Shown here in pieces: positions 2,330-63,645 of a stretch of DNA of 64,000 nt. Position numbers and translations under genes: made by a program. The stretch lies in the sequence record PZ091942.1; one strand, given 5' to 3'. Position 1 is the first letter of the stretch. Each line of letters opens with the position of its first letter. The notes beneath the pieces were generated by a model that worked only from the letters and a program-made list of their open reading frames with translations, ran no database searches and was not told the DNA's origin. The DNA is from a phage.

Positions 2330-2516
2330 GCATGATGTTGGTATTCGTGAGATTATTCGTCTTGCGATAATTGATCATCCTAACAGTCGCAATGGTCTGT
2401 TGTTACAGATCTCTAAATGTCTTAATTGCGATCGAGATGTAGCGAAAGAGCTGTTCTTTGCATTCCTTTATAATGCAGATGATCGCTTCTTGAATAACAA
2501 GTTGCGTAGTGCTTAA
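2319..2516 (+). CDS. hypothetical protein
   Basis: In-frame ATG of track ORF 2307-2516 (track start is GTG); followed by terminator. Confidence 0.4.
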   Translation: MAAEHDVGIREIIRLAIIDHPNSRNGLLLQISKCLNCDRDVAKELFFAFLYNADDRFLNNKLRSA

Positions 2517-2521
2517 TAAGA

Positions 2522-2552
2522 GGCTGCCCTTCGGGGTGGCCTTTGTTGTTTT
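2522..2552 (+). terminator. rho-independent terminator
   Basis: GGCTGCCC-TTCG-GGGTGGCC hairpin followed by TTTGTTGTTTT. Confidence 0.6.
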
Positions 2553-2595
2553 AATTAAGGGACAACTCTTACTTAAACTAACAAGAGAGGTTGAT

Positions 2596-2847
2596 ATGTT
2601 CAATCGTTTATTTGACCGTAAAGGTCGCACTGACATACTGATACCCTCTATCGGTGTGCCAGCTAAGTTCGGTGAGATACGTGCTGGTGATTTCTTCATG
2701 GAATCGGGGCGTCTTCATCTGAAGATCAACCTTGAACACGCCGTAGAAATCCTCAGTGATGATAAGCCAATCATCGGCACTTCGGTGTACAGTGCAAACC
2801 ATACTGTATTTGTTGTCAATGTTCAGATTGAGATTAAATCGCCATGA
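2596..2847 (+). CDS. small hypothetical protein, GD-x-F paralog family
   Basis: ATG with AGAGAGG RBS 5 nt upstream (track start 2509 rejected); GEIRAGDFFMESGRLHL motif. Confidence 0.5.
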   Translation: MFNRLFDRKGRTDILIPSIGVPAKFGEIRAGDFFMESGRLHLKINLEHAVEILSDDKPIIGTSVYSANHTVFVVNVQIEIKSP

Positions 2848-3101
2848 AGACAAACTTCCGAGCAGCAGTTATTACGAAAGTAATAGCAGTTGGTGATGTG
2901 ATGATGCAGGTTCCTCTGAACACTCGTTACATTGCCATTGATCGAATGGGTTACGTGTGGGCTTGGAAGTGGAAGCCTATCTATAATGAACTGTTCGATG
3001 AATACCAGTGCGCTGGGCCTTACATGCCAACGTTGGTTGGTGTGTATGAAGACGGTCCTTGTCGTACTCCTCAGTTAATTGAACTACCGGCGTGTGTTTA
3101 A
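2844..3101 (+). CDS. hypothetical protein
   Basis: ATGA start/stop overlap with upstream gene; 85-aa ORF. Confidence 0.5.
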   Translation: MKTNFRAAVITKVIAVGDVMMQVPLNTRYIAIDRMGYVWAWKWKPIYNELFDEYQCAGPYMPTLVGVYEDGPCRTPQLIELPACV

Positions 3102-3102
3102 T

Positions 3103-3264
3103 ATGATTAAGTGGCTAAAACGTGTCTTCCATTGTCATGATTGGAAGATTATTAACACCCGTCCTCTGGTCTATACAGATTCAGATGGGAACAATGACAA
3201 GGGCACACGTTACGTTATTCAGTGTAAGGTGTGTGGTGATGTTAGTCATCGTGATGTAATCTAA
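3103..3264 (+). CDS. small Cys/His-motif protein, tandem paralog 1
   Basis: ATG 3103 (track start 3079 is TTG); KWLKRVFHCHDW ... QCKVCG shared with next two ORFs. Confidence 0.45.
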   Translation: MIKWLKRVFHCHDWKIINTRPLVYTDSDGNNDKGTRYVIQCKVCGDVSHRDVI

Positions 3265-3273
3265 GGAATCATT

Positions 3274-3438
3274 ATGATTAAATGGTTCAAACGTCTATTT
3301 CATTTCCATGAGTGGGAAGATCTTCATACTTATGAACTGACGATCACAAATAAACTTACTGACAGAGAGCGACAAGGGTTGCGTATCTACTCTCGCTGTA
3401 AAGTGTGTGGTCTGCACAAGAAAACAGACCTGATTTAA
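3274..3438 (+). CDS. small Cys/His-motif protein, tandem paralog 2 (54 aa, not in ORF track)
   Basis: ATG after AAGGAA; MIKWFKRLFHFHEW ... RCKVCGLHKK; below track length cutoff. Confidence 0.45.
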   Translation: MIKWFKRLFHFHEWEDLHTYELTITNKLTDRERQGLRIYSRCKVCGLHKKTDLI

Positions 3439-3447
3439 GGGGGTGTT

Positions 3448-3657
3448 ATGTTCTTTCGTAAGAAAAAGCCCGAAGATTCTGGATGTAAACATGAGTGGGT
3501 GATCACTGAAAACTTACATATCACTCACGCTAAAGACACTCCAGCTGAAGCGAAAGAGTCTCGTGTATCTCGTGTCTGTAAACGCTGTTTGAAAATAGAA
3601 CAGCACAAAGTCCCCGGTCATATCTATCACGATGTGGCCTTGCGTATCTTCAGTTAA
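3448..3657 (+). CDS. small Cys/His-motif protein, tandem paralog 3
   Basis: ATG after GGGGG; CKHEW ... VCKRCLK motif. Confidence 0.45.
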   Translation: MFFRKKKPEDSGCKHEWVITENLHITHAKDTPAEAKESRVSRVCKRCLKIEQHKVPGHIYHDVALRIFS

Positions 3658-3675
3658 ATAAATCCAGAGGTTAAT

Positions 3676-3984
3676 GTGAAACAAAAGCATTTTATCATCT
3701 CAACCTTACTACTAATGACAACCATTGGTATCATCTCTGTTAATAGTGCAGAGATTGGAGTTAAGTATCAGAGTGTTCAGCAATGCACTCTTAAAGAGCA
3801 TAGCTTAACTGGTATCAAAGAATCTCATGGTATGGTAAGAGATGGGCTTCTGTTTGTAGAAACAACTTCTGGTAATCGTGTCATGGCTATTGATGGCAAA
3901 GAAACAAAGTATGCCTACTTCCCTGATACAACAGGCTATTACACTTTTGAAGATAAGGATTGTAAGAAGTCTTTCTCTTTATAA
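3676..3984 (+). CDS. secreted hypothetical protein (signal peptide)
   Basis: GTG start with GAGG RBS; N-terminal hydrophobic signal-like segment LLLMTTIGIISVNSA. Confidence 0.45.
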   Translation: MKQKHFIISTLLLMTTIGIISVNSAEIGVKYQSVQQCTLKEHSLTGIKESHGMVRDGLLFVETTSGNRVMAIDGKETKYAYFPDTTGYYTFEDKDCKKSFSL

Positions 3985-3993
3985 ACAATTCAA

Positions 3994-4069
3994 GCACCCT
4001 TAGCTCAATGGATAGAGCAGCGACCTTCTAAGTCGTTGGTTACAGGTTCGAGTCCTGTAGGGTGCACCA
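3994..4069 (+). tRNA. tRNA-Arg (anticodon UCU)
   Basis: Cloverleaf read by eye: acceptor GCACCCT/AGGGTGC, D-arm GCTC-AATGGATA-GAGC, anticodon stem GCGAC/GTCGT with loop CTTCTAA, T-arm ACAGG-TTCGAGT-CCTGT, encoded CCA. Confidence 0.85.
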
Positions 4070-4087
4070 ATCAACGTAGGAGGGATC

Positions 4088-4414
4088 ATGAGCTGGGGTG
4101 GTGTAATTACCTTAACCTGTATCTTTATCGCCTGTGTAGCTCTTACAGGCTGCGTACAGCATCGTCCTGATGGATGGTGTGCATTATCGGTAGAAGGTGT
4201 CTGTGTTTCCCGTTGGCATAGCGGGGAGAAGATTCCTAGTGGTGAAATTGATATGCGTTATGCTGGTGCTTCTTGTTCCAATGGCGGTGCTGTTGACGAG
4301 AAGGCTTATGCAAAGCGTGATATGGCTACCCAAGGTGATTGGTCACGTTATGACTTCATCTCCCGTGGTGAGCTGTGTGGTGGTTCTGTGACAACAACAG
4401 GTAAGGAGTGGTGA
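4088..4414 (+). CDS. lipoprotein (signal peptide with lipobox LTGC)
   Basis: AGGAGG RBS 5 nt upstream of ATG; hydrophobic N-terminus ending VALTGC; Cys-rich mature region. Confidence 0.65.
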   Translation: MSWGGVITLTCIFIACVALTGCVQHRPDGWCALSVEGVCVSRWHSGEKIPSGEIDMRYAGASCSNGGAVDEKAYAKRDMATQGDWSRYDFISRGELCGGSVTTTGKEW

Positions 4415-4415
4415 T

Positions 4416-4670
4416 ATGTCTGGTCATTATTCTGATACGAAATCTCTGATTGAAACAGCGGCTCAGACTTCATGCCAACAGCAAGTAAGTATGTTGTTGG
4501 TTGATATTCGCAATCTACGCTGGCTTATCAAAGAAGGTCATCTTGGAAACGCTGCCTATTACAACGTTAAAGATATCCTTCGCCGCCAGCACTTTCTTAT
4601 CCACGGAAACGTGGTCACTCGCAACTATCAATGGAACGGTCAATGGTTACAGCAGCGTATGTCCTCCTGA
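4416..4670 (+). CDS. hypothetical protein
   Basis: ATG 2 nt after upstream stop; 84-aa ORF. Confidence 0.45.
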   Translation: MSGHYSDTKSLIETAAQTSCQQQVSMLLVDIRNLRWLIKEGHLGNAAYYNVKDILRRQHFLIHGNVVTRNYQWNGQWLQQRMSS

Positions 4671-59777: not shown

Positions 59778-60524
59778 TTATCTGTTTCTACGAATGCCGT
59801 ACACTTCACGAGAGCTATTAAGACGGCTAATGGTTCGAGGGATTACAAGAGGTGACCCTGAGTATTCTGCTTTCTTACTCTGCTCAACAATTTCATCTAG
59901 AATTGCTTTACCAAGAGCAGACCACTTCTGCACTCCATTATCATCTTGAACAAACAAAGAAGCATGGCGTAGAGTAAAATAGAGAAGCAGTTCAGGAGCA
60001 ATAGTCAGAATAGCACTTGTATCTTCGTCTTCATGGAATTCTGGAGGGTCAGCATAATAACTCAAAACCACAGCATTATCAGCAGGAATCTCAGGTGCTC
60101 CATCATCAGGATAAATAGGAGTGTCTGCATCAATGAGTGGGTAGAACATAAAGCGACTACCTAAACGAGCAAACATCACATCACCTTGATTCCAGTTGGA
60201 TGGGTTAATAGAGTTATTTCTTTTCATCCAATCAAGTTCTTCAGGAGAGGTTGCTCGGAACATCATCCCATTCGAAGCTCTCATAATCCATTGTGCTTCT
60301 AAGAAGTCAGGAGGGATAAAACAGATACCATCCTTAATATCTAAATATACTTCTTTTTCCAGAGGAGGGATTCGTAAGTTACGATAGATTTCTTTCTCTG
60401 CAAAGTTAATAAAGTTTGGAATCTGATTAACAAATTCATCATCATCCCTATCGGCCCAGAGCGACACAGCCTTTTTAAGCCAGCCATAGGTATTGATAGG
60501 GTAAGCCACTTCAGGCATCGCCAT
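59778..60524 (-). CDS. virion structural protein (hypothetical, 248 aa)
   Basis: AGGAGG RBS; translationally coupled to tail fiber gene. Confidence 0.5.
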   Translation of the reverse strand: MAMPEVAYPINTYGWLKKAVSLWADRDDDEFVNQIPNFINFAEKEIYRNLRIPPLEKEVYLDIKDGICFIPPDFLEAQWIMRASNGMMFRATSPEELDWMKRNNSINPSNWNQGDVMFARLGSRFMFYPLIDADTPIYPDDGAPEIPADNAVVLSYYADPPEFHEDEDTSAILTIAPELLLYFTLRHASLFVQDDNGVQKWSALGKAILDEIVEQSKKAEYSGSPLVIPRTISRLNSSREVYGIRRNR

Positions 60525-60624: not shown

Positions 60625-61719
60625 TTAAAGTGACTTAACTGCAATTATAGCCGGAACTTGGGTTGCAGTGGTCTCTGTTCCAGAAGATGGGGTGTATACA
60701 AACCCTTCATAATATTGGCTGTTTGTAACATCATAGATTAGGAATCTAAAAGACCTATTCTGTGCTGATCCCCATGTGTATTGGAATATGCGAGCTGTGG
60801 CGTTGTTCGCATAAGTATTTACACCTGAAACCTTTTTGATAGAAGTAGAGTCAGTGTAAACAGCTTCACTTCTAAGAGTTATTGATTTTCCTGATGTATT
60901 GGAAATCACAATCTCAAAGTTGGCAGAAGTTGTACCCCTCAACCCTATGGAAACTCCCGGAGAATTAGGAAGTAGTGTAGTATGGCTTGTAACATTTACG
61001 CCCGGACACATTCCTTTGGTTGTAAAGACGGATTGACTATTCGCAGCATCCTTCCCAGCAGGACCAGTATCCCCTTTATCCCCTTTCAATCCTTGTGGTC
61101 CAGCAGGGCCTTGACTTCCAGTAGGTCCTTGTTGACCTCTGATACCTTGTGGACCAGCCGGTCCTACCGGACCTTGCGGACCTTCTGCTCCTTGTGATGC
61201 TAAGAGCGCCCAATAGGTTTCATCAGTGGGTAAATTACCTAGGTTATCTCCTTCAAAAACAGAATAATAACTGGCTCCTTGATATCCAACTGAGTTGTTT
61301 TTTGTATAACTGACACTTACATCCCAAGTGCCCATCCATTCTAGCCCAGCTGGTCCTACCGGACCCCGTGGACCTTCCACTCCTTGCGGACCCGCAGGTC
61401 CTTGCTCGCCTTGAACTCCTTGTGGGCCTATTCCTCCGTCAACTCCATCTTTTCCAGCAAGACCTTGTGGACCTTGAGGACCAGCCTCACCTTGAGGGCC
61501 GCGCTCCCCTTGAGGACCAGCGGGACCCGGTTCTCCACCTCCCGGTCCTACCGGACCTTGCGGACCTTCTGGACCTTGTTCCCCTTTAAGTTCTCCGGCT
61601 AGGAATTTCTCGTATGCAATTATTGCTCCACTGAAGGGGATTGTTTTATCGTCATTTACATCGTAAAGCCCGTGACCATAAAACACACCTGCCTTGTGCC
61701 CGTTCTCTATATCAGCCAT
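60625..61719 (-). CDS. collagen-like repeat protein (fiber or decoration)
   Basis: GGAGG RBS; long runs of Gly-X-Y triplets ([16 protein letters not shown]..., [13 protein letters not shown]...) with non-collagen C-terminal domain. Confidence 0.7.
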
Positions 61720-61746: not shown

Positions 61747-61776
61747 ATAAAAAGAAAGCCACCATAAGGCGGCTTT
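61747..61776 (-). terminator. rho-independent terminator
   Basis: Minus strand AAGCCGCC-UUAU-GGUGGCUU then UCUUUUU. Confidence 0.6.
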
Positions 61777-61780
61777 AGTA

Positions 61781-62677
61781 TTAGGCGGCTTTAACACCAG
61801 CAATTGTTGCATAAGCCTTGGATGTAGGATCACTTGCAGCCCAGACTTCTATTGTGAAAGGGGTTTCTATTGTACGAGAAGGGGCTGTGTATAAACCACT
61901 CTTCCCTCCAATTTGACCAAAACCAATAGGAGCTACAAACAATAAGTCAGTATCAGAGCTACCATCAGAATATCCTACAGTTCCTGAAAATTGTACTGTT
62001 TCACCGTAAACCAGAGCAGGAACTTCTGTTGGCTGGATAGTAACACTGGTTACGGTTTTAGGCTTTGGGGTAACACCTGTGAATTCACAAGTAGCTGTCA
62101 CAAGAGGTTTAGTCTTGTGTGTAGCTGCAACAGAGACTGTACCCGTAGCAGTATCAGCAAGAGTCAAAAGACCAGCTGCACTAATAGTACCTGCTTCAGT
62201 AGGGGTTACAACAAAATCGTAATCACCACCAGCAGAATTGGTTACAGTAAACATTGTAGAGAAGGCAGTAGTAGAACCACCGACTTTACCAGCAATAGGA
62301 CCACGACTTACAATTGTAGGTTCAGGGTCAGCAATAGCTGAGATCGTAGATGTACCGGATTTCCCACCTTTAGTAGCTTTCACTGTAATCGGGGTTTCTT
62401 GCGACGCACTCGGTGCAGTGTACAGTCCAGAAGCAGAAATAGCCCCACCACCCTCAACGGACCAAACAAATCCAGTTGTTGATGTGGAGCTATCACTCAT
62501 TTGTGCTGTAGCTGTAAACTGCTGAGTAGCCCCCGTCGGAAGGCTTGCAACCGACGAAGGACTAACAGTTATGGTATCTACTGTTACGCCGCCACTGCCT
62601 TTCCCGCAGCAGTGAACAGAACGCCGGAAGCGTACGGGTTGCGGTGACGCAGACCAACTTCCATCTCGATCATCCAC
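61781..62677 (-). CDS. Ig-like (Big_2-type) domain ORF, probable -1 frameshift extension of major capsid protein
   Basis: Overlaps capsid 3' end in -1 frame; no plausible start/RBS before the first Ig-like strand; two Ig-like repeats (TVDTITVSPSS...QQFTATAQ; TVTSVTIQPTEV...VQFSGTV). Confidence 0.55.
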   Translation of the reverse strand: MDDRDGSWSASPQPVRFRRSVHCCGKGSGGVTVDTITVSPSSVASLPTGATQQFTATAQMSDSSTSTTGFVWSVEGGGAISASGLYTAPSASQETPITVKATKGGKSGTSTISAIADPEPTIVSRGPIAGKVGGSTTAFSTMFTVTNSAGGDYDFVVTPTEAGTISAAGLLTLADTATGTVSVAATHKTKPLVTATCEFTGVTPKPKTVTSVTIQPTEVPALVYGETVQFSGTVGYSDGSSDTDLLFVAPIGFGQIGGKSGLYTAPSRTIETPFTIEVWAASDPTSKAYATIAGVKAA

Positions 62678-63645
62678 TTCTCGTAAGAACCATCTTTAGC
62701 CAGTTCAGTACGCTTCGGAGCACGAAGGACCATCTGAGTCCAGTCAGAGCTGCGGAAGAAGTAAACTGCATCAGCAGGCATCCAACGGTTAACTACGATC
62801 TTGTAGCTCTGGCCCAGCGGGTCAGTGATGCTATTTACTTCGTAGATGAACTGCTTGGTGTTTTCGAAGATACGCTGACGAGAGCCAACGGAGTTTTCTT
62901 GCAGCTTAGCAAAGATTGCTGCATGAGCAGGGTTAATCATGATGATGTCTGCTTCAGAACCTGCGGTATACAGCTGAAGGGTCATATCAAAGATATCTGC
63001 TTCATCAAAGCCGATGTTAGCAACCGGATTAGATGCGTTCTTAGCAACTTTAACAGTTACTGCACCAGTATCCGGGTCAGCCGGGCCATCAACAGTTTTG
63101 TTAACGTTCGTACCAGTCAAACCACCGTGAGCACACAGGAACTGGAAAGCACCAGTCTTACGAGCTGCATGAGTGTCATTCAGGCCACCCTGAGCAGGAT
63201 CAGCTGCTGAGTTAGTCAGATACTGGTCAGCCAGAACGTCGGTACGAGCCTGACCGGACAGCAAGATTTTCTCGAGGTCACGTTTAATCTCTTTACCTTT
63301 CTTCTCCAGCTGATACATCAGTTCACGACCACGACCGTAGTTAGCGGTGGTGTTAGCGGTATCAGATACACGAACTACTTTACGCAGAATCTGAGTAACG
63401 TTAGATTTGATAACGGTCGGTTTCATTTCGCCGTCTTCAGCGCGAGAGCCTTCAACGTGTGCGTTGTTAGCATCAACACTTGCCAGTGCATCGGTCTGCC
63501 AGCTGAAAATAGTCTGGTTGATAGACTCTTTACCAGTCATAGACACAAACGGGGTATCCTGCGGGGACAGAACAGAAATCCAGTTAGCAAAAGAAAGTTT
63601 TTTACCATTCTGGTCGTAAGATACAAATAAAGTTGGATTTGCCAT
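62584..63645 (-). CDS. major capsid protein (putative)
   Basis: 353-aa ORF with AGGAG RBS after a partial upstream gene; followed by frameshift ORF and two terminators; assignment rests on context. Confidence 0.6.
   Translation of the reverse strand: MANPTLFVSYDQNGKKLSFANWISVLSPQDTPFVSMTGKESINQTIFSWQTDALASVDANNAHVEGSRAEDGEMKPTVIKSNVTQILRKVVRVSDTANTTANYGRGRELMYQLEKKGKEIKRDLEKILLSGQARTDVLADQYLTNSAADPAQGGLNDTHAARKTGAFQFLCAHGGLTGTNVNKTVDGPADPDTGAVTVKVAKNASNPVANIGFDEADIFDMTLQLYTAGSEADIIMINPAHAAIFAKLQENSVGSRQRIFENTKQFIYEVNSITDPLGQSYKIVVNRWMPADAVYFFRSSDWTQMVLRAPKRTELAKDGSYEKWMIEMEVGLRHRNPYASGVLFTAAGKAVAA
62599..62605 (-). promoter_or_regulatory. candidate -1 ribosomal slippery heptamer G GGA AAG
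   Basis: X XXY YYZ heptamer 4 codons before capsid stop; -1 shift reads GGG AAA GGC AGT GGC GGC GTA into the Ig-like ORF; coordinates approximate to 1-2 nt. Confidence 0.4.

Follow-up and report, generated by a model that had tools for sequence, protein, structure and literature searches.

The major capsid protein (MCP) gene of the phage DNA analyzed here very probably specifies two proteins, the standard MCP and a longer form that would arise through a programmed -1 ribosomal frameshift at the 3' end of the gene, orthologous to the frameshift of phages phiEco32, SU10, Paul, and YF01. Ribosomes that shift would read on into a series of Ig-like domains. The frameshift has already been published for this phage group, and the reading offered in a preliminary description of this DNA is correct, not new.

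The window, that is, the whole 64,000-nt stretch of record PZ091942.1, belongs to a Kuravirus-like coliphage (subfamily Gordonclarkvirinae, phiEco32/SU10/NJ01 group), and the locus is part of the late/virion module on the minus strand. When 2.2 kb around the locus are used as a query, 123 phage records match; the best, with 92% identity, are those of Escherichia phages pEC-N1203-2Af.1, NJ01, and 172-1. The MCP gene, which defines the zero frame, lies at 62584..63645 on the minus strand and encodes 353 aa (38.7 kDa); the sequence and the list of open reading frames (ORFs) both bear out the original placement of the gene and its C-terminal sequence FTAAGKAVAA, which is followed by the stop codon TAA at 62586-62584. 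An AGGAG sequence is present at 63660-63656, 10 nt 5' of the MCP ATG. The protein belongs to the Pfam family SU10_MCP (E = 4e-78; 263 bits against a cutoff of 24.1) and matches the solved SU10 major head protein, 7z45, with E = 2e-222. The gene order (portal, scaffold, MCP, extension, terminator, adaptor) is that of the relatives, and in the window a collagen-like gene is inserted ahead of the adaptor gene. The terminator-like intrinsic hairpin with its T-run (61755..61776, minus strand) is the single such hairpin at the MCP/extension locus. It is located 3' of the extension, 5 nt past the extension stop, and terminators are annotated at the equivalent place in Paul, SU10, and Privateer; this terminator (61776-61755) would end the MCP/extension transcript.

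The slippery heptamer, G GGA AAG (the pattern X XXY YYZ), is present at 62599..62605 on the minus strand, in phase with the MCP codons, and is the proposed site of the -1 shift. A check of the phase confirms its initial assignment (62605-62599) four codons before the MCP stop: in the zero frame, four sense codons follow the heptamer and then comes TAA. Gly348-Lys349 is encoded in both frames at this position. The -1 frame extension (61781..62599, minus strand) begins by re-reading G62599 and comprises 272 codons and the stop TAA at 61783-61781. Its translation is GK, then GSGGVTVDTITVSPSS..., open as far as that stop, and it reproduces the shifted codons GGG AAA GGC AGT GGC GGC GTA ACA given at the outset. 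The ORF list holds the same frame, as had been reported, as an ORF of 298 aa from a GTG (61781-62677), and the frame is open from 62695, i.e. from 30 codons upstream of the heptamer. The computed fusion product has 621 aa (65.3 kDa), 349 residues of MCP and 272 new ones; it is larger than MCP (38.7 kDa) by 26.6 kDa and not by the approximately 28 kDa first estimated. A trypsin site (between K349 and G) coincides exactly with the fusion junction, and the predicted chymotryptic peptide spanning the -1 junction is TAAGKGSGGVTVDTITVSPSSVASL.

Long -1 ORFs behind such heptamers are rare in the window. Within its ORFs of at least 150 aa, there are 35 in-frame X XXY YYZ heptamers, and one of the 35, that of MCP, opens a -1 ORF of at least 60 aa (272 aa); over the whole set the -1 ORF length has a median of 6 and a 90th percentile of 26. 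When the 816-nt extension is shuffled, 0 of 20000 shuffles remain open. Because one heptamer in 35 opens a long -1 ORF and no shuffle stays open, the -1 layout is more than chance.

Loci for comparison were gathered from IMG/VR, INPHARED, and metagenomes, and those with an MCP at least 91% identical form the close group (n = 21). GGGAAAG is present in phase in all 21 close relatives and also in Privateer. Within the close group, however, 49% of the degenerate (synonymous) codon columns are invariant, so that an invariant heptamer carries little weight by itself. A stretch of codons 40-60 nt upstream of the heptamer, GAA GTT GGT CTG CGT CAC CGC AAC, is likewise invariant and is kept even in distant relatives. 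These are preferred codons in E. coli, and the stretch was set aside as a signal and judged to be codon bias. An open -1 ORF of 178-545 aa is found in every close relative except in the SU10 record. The extension has 178-180 aa in most of them, 272 aa and three domains here, 272 aa also in two Logan contigs (L077-L078), 372 aa in EP335, 437 aa in L025, and 545 aa in Paul. Thus, extensions of very different length stand behind one fixed slip site.

In the SU10 record the -1 frame is shut after 11 codons and the Ig sequence carries on in the zero frame, a layout with which a remark in the YF01 paper agrees (PMC9965538). This closed frame would suit the idea that the 353-aa MCP alone matters and that the -1 ORF, whether silent or in decay, is left over from an earlier separate gene or in-frame fusion. 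So would the uniform MCP of SU10 virions, in which, as the YF01 paper relates, cryo-EM and SDS-PAGE gave no extended form (PMC9965538), and the in-frame extensions of MCP paralogues in SeKF_80, GAP52, and L013, in which fusions have moved between frames. A remnant is nevertheless hard to reconcile with a frame that is open for 272 codons (0/20000 shuffles), with a confident fold prediction, or with a frame open in all 21 close relatives but the SU10 record despite the gain and loss of domains. It also conflicts with the substitution pattern: compared with seven relatives, the -1 frame of the extension has a dN/dS of 0.18-0.31, and by this measure the extension is coding sequence under purifying selection. 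A remnant ORF is therefore extremely improbable. Since those studies of SU10 virions gave no extended form and the SU10 record closes the -1 frame, the extension is dispensable, at least in the laboratory.

The recurrence of the two-frame layout in 21 independently assembled genomes and contigs also argues against slippage of RNA polymerase, or an indel introduced in sequencing or assembly, as the origin of the long form. Nothing specific favors such an origin, and the SU10 case illustrates that indels do occur in deposited sequences of this stretch. The longest homopolymer at the slip site is three bases (GGG, AAA), far shorter than the runs required for transcriptional slippage, and the chance that either process accounts for the long form is practically negligible.

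In the proposed ribosomal mechanism, most ribosomes would pass G GGA AAG without leaving the zero frame and stop four codons later, yielding the 353-aa MCP. A small fraction would slip while the P site has tRNA-Gly paired with GGA and the A site has tRNA-Lys, the single one of E. coli (anticodon UUU), paired with AAG. Both tRNAs would then re-pair one base back, on GGG AAA, and reading in the -1 frame would resume with GGC. The resulting 621-aa product would consist of MCP residues 1-349, a GSGG linker, a Big_2 domain, an unassigned module, and a Big_2-like domain, and both products would be made from one mRNA ending at the terminator. The long form would be built into the prolate head as a minor subunit, with its domains displayed on the outside. 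Such surface display of Ig-like domains is argued by analogy with related systems, as is the probable function of the displayed domains, weak adhesion to glycans of the cell surface or the environment. The frequency of slippage would be a few percent, taking as a guide lambda G/GT, where this heptamer gives about 4%.

The RNA around the heptamer contains several potential structures. Both hairpins named in the preliminary description (AACAGU/ACUGUU and CGUCGG/CCGACG) exist; their part in frameshifting is weakly indicated. Hairpin 1 (62563..62586, minus strand), which appears in the minimum free energy (MFE) fold, pairs UAACAGU with ACUGUUA across a 10-nt loop, and its 5' arm holds the MCP stop UAA. 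It starts 12 nt past the heptamer here and 9 nt past it in phiEco32-type sequences. It is AU-rich, and in pair counts taken over 15 distinct sequences six of its seven pairs are invariant, which precludes a covariation test. Hairpin 2 (CUUCGUCGG...CCGACGGGG; 62531..62559, minus strand), examined by pair counts and RNAalifold and with a putative role in frameshifting, starts 39 nt past the heptamer. Two of its pairs change on both sides (UA/GC, GC/UG), and the structure slid by -1 scores equally. RNAalifold lengthens it to 62572-62514, with one additional covarying pair, and the fold of the 85 nt 3' of the heptamer has z = -2.4. Folding, pair counts, and RNAalifold reveal no convincing stimulatory structure at the canonical spacing of 5-9 nt, and inspection by eye of the 14 nt upstream of the heptamer reveals no element resembling a Shine-Dalgarno (SD) sequence. 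Because the heptamer is itself highly shift-prone in E. coli, the lack of a stimulator is not taken to exclude the frameshift (PMC5009743). The conserved hairpin 39 nt past the heptamer could be a long-range stimulator, an idea advanced jointly with the reading of a single insertion and head decoration given below; the two together are unlikely.

Two other candidates were not adopted. A hairpin enclosing the heptamer (CACUGC/GCAGUG), noted for SU10 (PMC4281155), keeps four to six of its six pairs in 14 of 15 sequences and has one compensatory change, but it cannot be a classical downstream stimulator because its 5' arm lies upstream of the slip site. An influence of a phage-encoded tRNA on the slip was also discarded: the sole tRNA gene in the window, for tRNA-Arg(TCT), is judged irrelevant.

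Most GenBank and RefSeq records annotate the extension as a stand-alone "Ig domain containing protein", and this practice supplies the main case for a separate gene with its own start, which would encode 239 aa from the ATG at 62500 or 298 aa from the GTG at 62677. A separate Ig coding sequence (CDS) is annotated in SU7, NJ01, EP335, Bas92, and SU10, and public collections contain a 239-aa call (P0001) that is 98% identical to the window ORF from ATG 62500. The annotated starts, however, vary between records. When every ATG, GTG, and TTG of the -1 ORF is listed with the 20 nt upstream and judged by eye, no SD sequence is visible before any candidate start. The first ATG of the ORF is that at 62500; it corresponds to residue 34 of the extension, inside domain 1. 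To this extent the earlier statement that neither a ribosome binding site nor a start precedes the first Ig strand is confirmed. A start at this ATG, besides having no SD by eye, would delete the first strands of domain 1, and the Met is replaced by Lys in four lineages (phiEco32, SU7, ECBP2, Bas92). The GTG at 62677 is situated within the MCP coding sequence and has merely a GAGAA directly abutting it. Finally, the -1 frame of Privateer is closed right up to the heptamer, and products of the size of a fusion are supported by mass spectrometry in relatives. An independent start of the Ig ORF was rejected on the lack of an SD by eye and the unconserved first ATG, and a separate gene is very unlikely.

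Frameshifting, by comparison, has been documented in several relatives. The SU10 genome paper identified GGGAAAG and, citing phiEco32, describes MCP forms of 38.5 kDa and 55.4 kDa by mass spectrometry (PMC4281155). The GenBank record of Paul joins the two frames in one CDS with the note "Frameshift at GGGAAAG", which refers to phiEco32 (PMID 18294652); the frameshifted capsid protein of phiEco32 is represented here by this note and by the papers that cite it. The YF01 paper extends the mechanism to the whole group and gives extension sizes from 500-550 to 892-894 aa (PMC9965538). In virions of the Proteus phage Privateer the capsid protein gave two bands, and mass spectrometry detected the minor form (PMC7881722). 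For the present phage the case is built from the signal, its phase and conservation, the selection on the -1 frame, and the fold, and it is in the relatives that the protein product itself has been seen.

The relationship to the Kuravirus group (phiEco32, SU10 gp9+gp10, Paul, YF01) is one of orthology. The MCPs are 92-99.7% identical in amino acid sequence, the identical GGGAAAG occurs at the same codons and is followed by a Gly-rich linker, the first two extension domains are common (domains 1 and 2 align with those of NJ01, phiEco32, Paul, and others), and the scaffold gene, MCP, extension, and terminator occur in the same order; the difference lies in the length and domain number of the extension. 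Privateer has an MCP of the same family (57% identity), GGGAAAG at the MCP 3' end, and a -1 extension of 169 aa, but it belongs to the Grimontviridae, and its heptamer abuts the zero-frame stop and directly follows a -1 stop. Because these stops bracket the heptamer (-1 upstream, zero downstream), in Privateer the shift can occur nowhere but on the heptamer itself.

Other systems resemble the locus in the shift site or in the layout. In lambda G/GT the identical G GGA AAG is read by E. coli ribosomes close to a downstream zero-frame stop. However, the proteins are unrelated, and the lambda product is an assembly chaperone found outside the virion, not a capsid subunit. G_GGA_AAG is among the sequences that are highly shift-prone in E. 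coli (PMC5009743), and at lambda G/GT about 96% of reading of GGGAAAG is in the zero frame, the shift depending on the modification (thiolation) of tRNA-Lys(UUU) (PMC3296357). The parallel that had been drawn with T7 gene 10A/10B is sound for the layout: in T3 and T7, also short-tailed coliphages, a -1 shift late in the major capsid gene yields a minor, longer capsid protein. It does not extend to the shift site or to the type of extension. The T7 site begins G_GU and is subject to an unexplained long-range effect of a CCCC more than 200 nt downstream, and the T7 extension, unlike that of T3, is not Ig-like (PMC5009743); the heptamer here is G GGA AAG and not a T7-type site. For the gene 10A/10B frameshift, the YF01 paper quotes about 10% slippage (PMC9965538). 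Thus, the resemblance to T7 is one of layout, not membership, and T3 is closer by virtue of its Ig-like extension.

The extension begins with a Gly/Ser linker, GSGG (62588..62599, minus strand), which connects the capsid body to the first domain and differs in length and sequence among relatives (GGG, GGS, GSGG, VGS). An AlphaFold model of the extension, built with 54 homologues, has a mean pLDDT of 95.8 and contains three beta-sandwich domains, where two Ig-like (Big_2-type) repeats had been claimed; domain 1 alone passes the Pfam Big_2 threshold. Domain 1 (extension residues 7-86; 62342..62581, minus strand) is a Big_2 Ig-like domain by Pfam, by AlphaFold, and by a sequence match to 6qvk. 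Its Big_2 (PF02368) score is 31 bits when the 274-aa stretch beginning at the heptamer is searched and 24.7 bits for the domain alone, against a cutoff of 22.8. Domain 2 (residues 95-177; 62069..62317, minus strand) is modelled as a beta-sandwich and is without a Pfam family, as Pfam matches none at E up to 10. It is present once in most relatives and about five times in Paul, the repeats being read from the Paul translation. Domain 3 (residues 183-266; 61802..62053, minus strand) is modelled by AlphaFold as a beta-sandwich and is Big_2-like in sequence; it scores 15.4 bits (E = 0.019) for Big_2, under the gathering threshold of 22.8. Its identity to domain 1 of related phages is 43-48%. As modelled, then, domains 2 and 3 are Ig-like by fold and not members of Pfam Big_2.

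The best fold matches of the extension model are tandem bacterial Ig-like arrays (Leptospira LigA and S-layer proteins), and further matches include the Ig-like nozzle domains of SU10 itself, NCAM, cadherins, and titin. Searched by sequence against solved structures, the extension gives a single weak match, to the 448-aa capsid chain 6qvk, in which residues 349-418 match domain 1 (E = 7.5e-4). This chain, presumably phi29 gp8 with its BIG2 domain, also carries a Big_2-type domain at the MCP C-terminus; in contrast to the arrangement here, the domain is fused in frame and is carried by every subunit.

Beyond the close group, Ig-like extensions arise from the same MCP 3' end via other heptamers, and at least five different heptamers are found at this position across the wider relatives. 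GGTAAAG (G GUA AAG) is present in Aeromonas phage LAh_8 and in several contigs of 82-90 kb, and three of the sequences with this heptamer (L008-L010) have a GC-rich hairpin 6 nt downstream. CCCAAAA (C CCA AAA) is present in PJNS034 and L037, CCCAAAG (C CCA AAG) in L034, and AAAAAAG (A AAA AAG) in L013. In addition, MCP paralogues with in-frame C-terminal extensions are found in SeKF_80, GAP52, L013, and L035. The in-frame paralogues and the varied heptamers agree with a published view in which recombination places Ig-like domains either in or out of frame, and the frame in which they arrive then sets how they are expressed (PMC5009743). The locus illustrates this known principle of mobile Ig-like domains, for which expression in frame or through a frameshift is a matter of chance.

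The main value of the analysis is in correct annotation. Most records and automatic gene callers split the locus into MCP and a free-standing Ig protein with arbitrary starts, and the evidence favors a single gene that gives two products. In phage-therapy candidates of the group, differences in the displayed domains may affect adsorption or surface retention.

The window differs from the annotated members of the group at two places. Domain 3 and the collagen-like gene (60625-61719, between the extension and adaptor genes) find no match at the DNA level in the phage collection and are absent from the annotated kuraviruses searched. The collagen-like protein, which has a weak CBM_5_12 signal, has no Kuravirus orthologue in the phage collection. 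Conceivably, in this sublineage a single insertion in the gap between the extension and adaptor genes brought in both domain 3 and the collagen-like protein, and the two cooperate as a new head decoration; coupled as it is with a stimulatory role for hairpin 2, this proposal has a low likelihood. If the insertion did occur in this way, the collagen-like protein might, for example, form a fiber that is anchored on, or cooperates with, the Ig array displayed through frameshifting. The same arrangement of domain 3 and the collagen-like gene is present in three unannotated Logan contigs (Logan/ENA), and the three-domain extension with its collagen-like neighbor amounts to a small variation in the architecture of a known system.

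The heptamer G GGA AAG (62605-62599, minus strand), the proposed -1 frameshift site near the 3' end of the major capsid protein (MCP) gene, sits in the loop of a perfect 6-bp stem, CACUGC (62614-62609) paired with GCAGUG (62598-62593), which spans 62593-62614 on the minus strand. Between four and six of the six pairs are retained in 14 of 15 distinct relatives, and ECBP2 carries one compensatory change (T-A to C-G).

In wider relatives whose MCPs are 58-66% identical (L008-L011, L032, L033, and L038, Aeromonas phage LAh_8 among them), the canonical heptamer is replaced by G GUA AAG, at ~4912-4918 in L008-L011, again at the MCP 3' end. Downstream of it lie -1 frame, Ig-like extensions of 90-171 aa, and in L008-L010 a GC-rich hairpin (GCGCCC-CUAC-GGGCGU) begins 6 nt 3' of the heptamer. 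The opening G_GU of this heptamer is also reported for T7 gene 10 [reviewed in PMC5009743]. More distant MCP relatives have still other heptamers at the same position: C CCA AAA in L022 (PJNS034; at 3385) and in L037, with extensions of 132 and ~212 aa; C CCA AAG in L034, with an extension of ~91 aa whose beginning is similar to domain 2 of the window's extension; and A AAA AAG in L013 (at 4921), with an extension of 42 aa. The sole annotation of the extension stretch in PJNS034 is a separate CDS for a hypothetical protein; L037, L034, and L013 are unannotated contigs.

In the SU10 record (L016, NC_027395; 3538-3700), the -1 frame is shut after 11 codons and Ig-domain sequence resumes in the zero frame beyond the MCP stop. 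Together, these features of the deposited sequence imply that it differs from all other group members by a one-base indel; contig L031, near-identical to the SU10 record, does not have this indel. In the NJ01 RefSeq record (L002, NC_018835; 1657-2718), the MCP has no annotated CDS despite an intact ORF, and the annotated Ig ORF begins at an internal start.

Frameshifting is not the only way to produce a decorated capsid subunit. The 7-11-like prolate phages L020 (SeKF_80; 2501-4270), L021 (GAP52; 3529-4629), L013, and L035 carry two to four tandem MCP paralogues; in some of these, the C-terminus is extended in frame by 58-277 aa. Such paralogues are an alternative to frameshifting.

The frameshift junction lies immediately 3' of the Lys349 codon (62599-62601, minus strand), giving …TAAGK|GSGG…, so a tryptic peptide cannot span it unless cleavage is missed. 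The C-terminal peptide specific to the zero-frame MCP is just AVAA. These two features may be the reason why published evidence relies on band size plus peptides from the extension.

Domain 3 of the extension (61802-62053, minus strand) is Big_2-like and paralogous to domain 1; it shares 43-48% identity with domain 1 of relatives. No DNA match to it is present in a collection of 50,697 phage records; the three-domain extension was found only in unannotated ENA/Logan assemblies (P0001-P0003).

Between the terminator of the MCP extension and the adaptor gene (59778-60524) lies a gene for a 364-aa collagen-like protein (60625-61719, minus strand; Pfam Collagen, 7e-17; a weak CBM_5_12 match, E=0.15) with its own ribosome-binding site, GGAGG. 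No gene occupies this position in the annotated kuraviruses searched. The nearest phage matches (~30% identity) are proteins of Dhakavirus and Rogue1-like phages, labelled collagen-like "tail fiber" or hypothetical proteins. Logan contigs L077-L079 also carry the gene, called there as two ORFs (68 and 239 aa).
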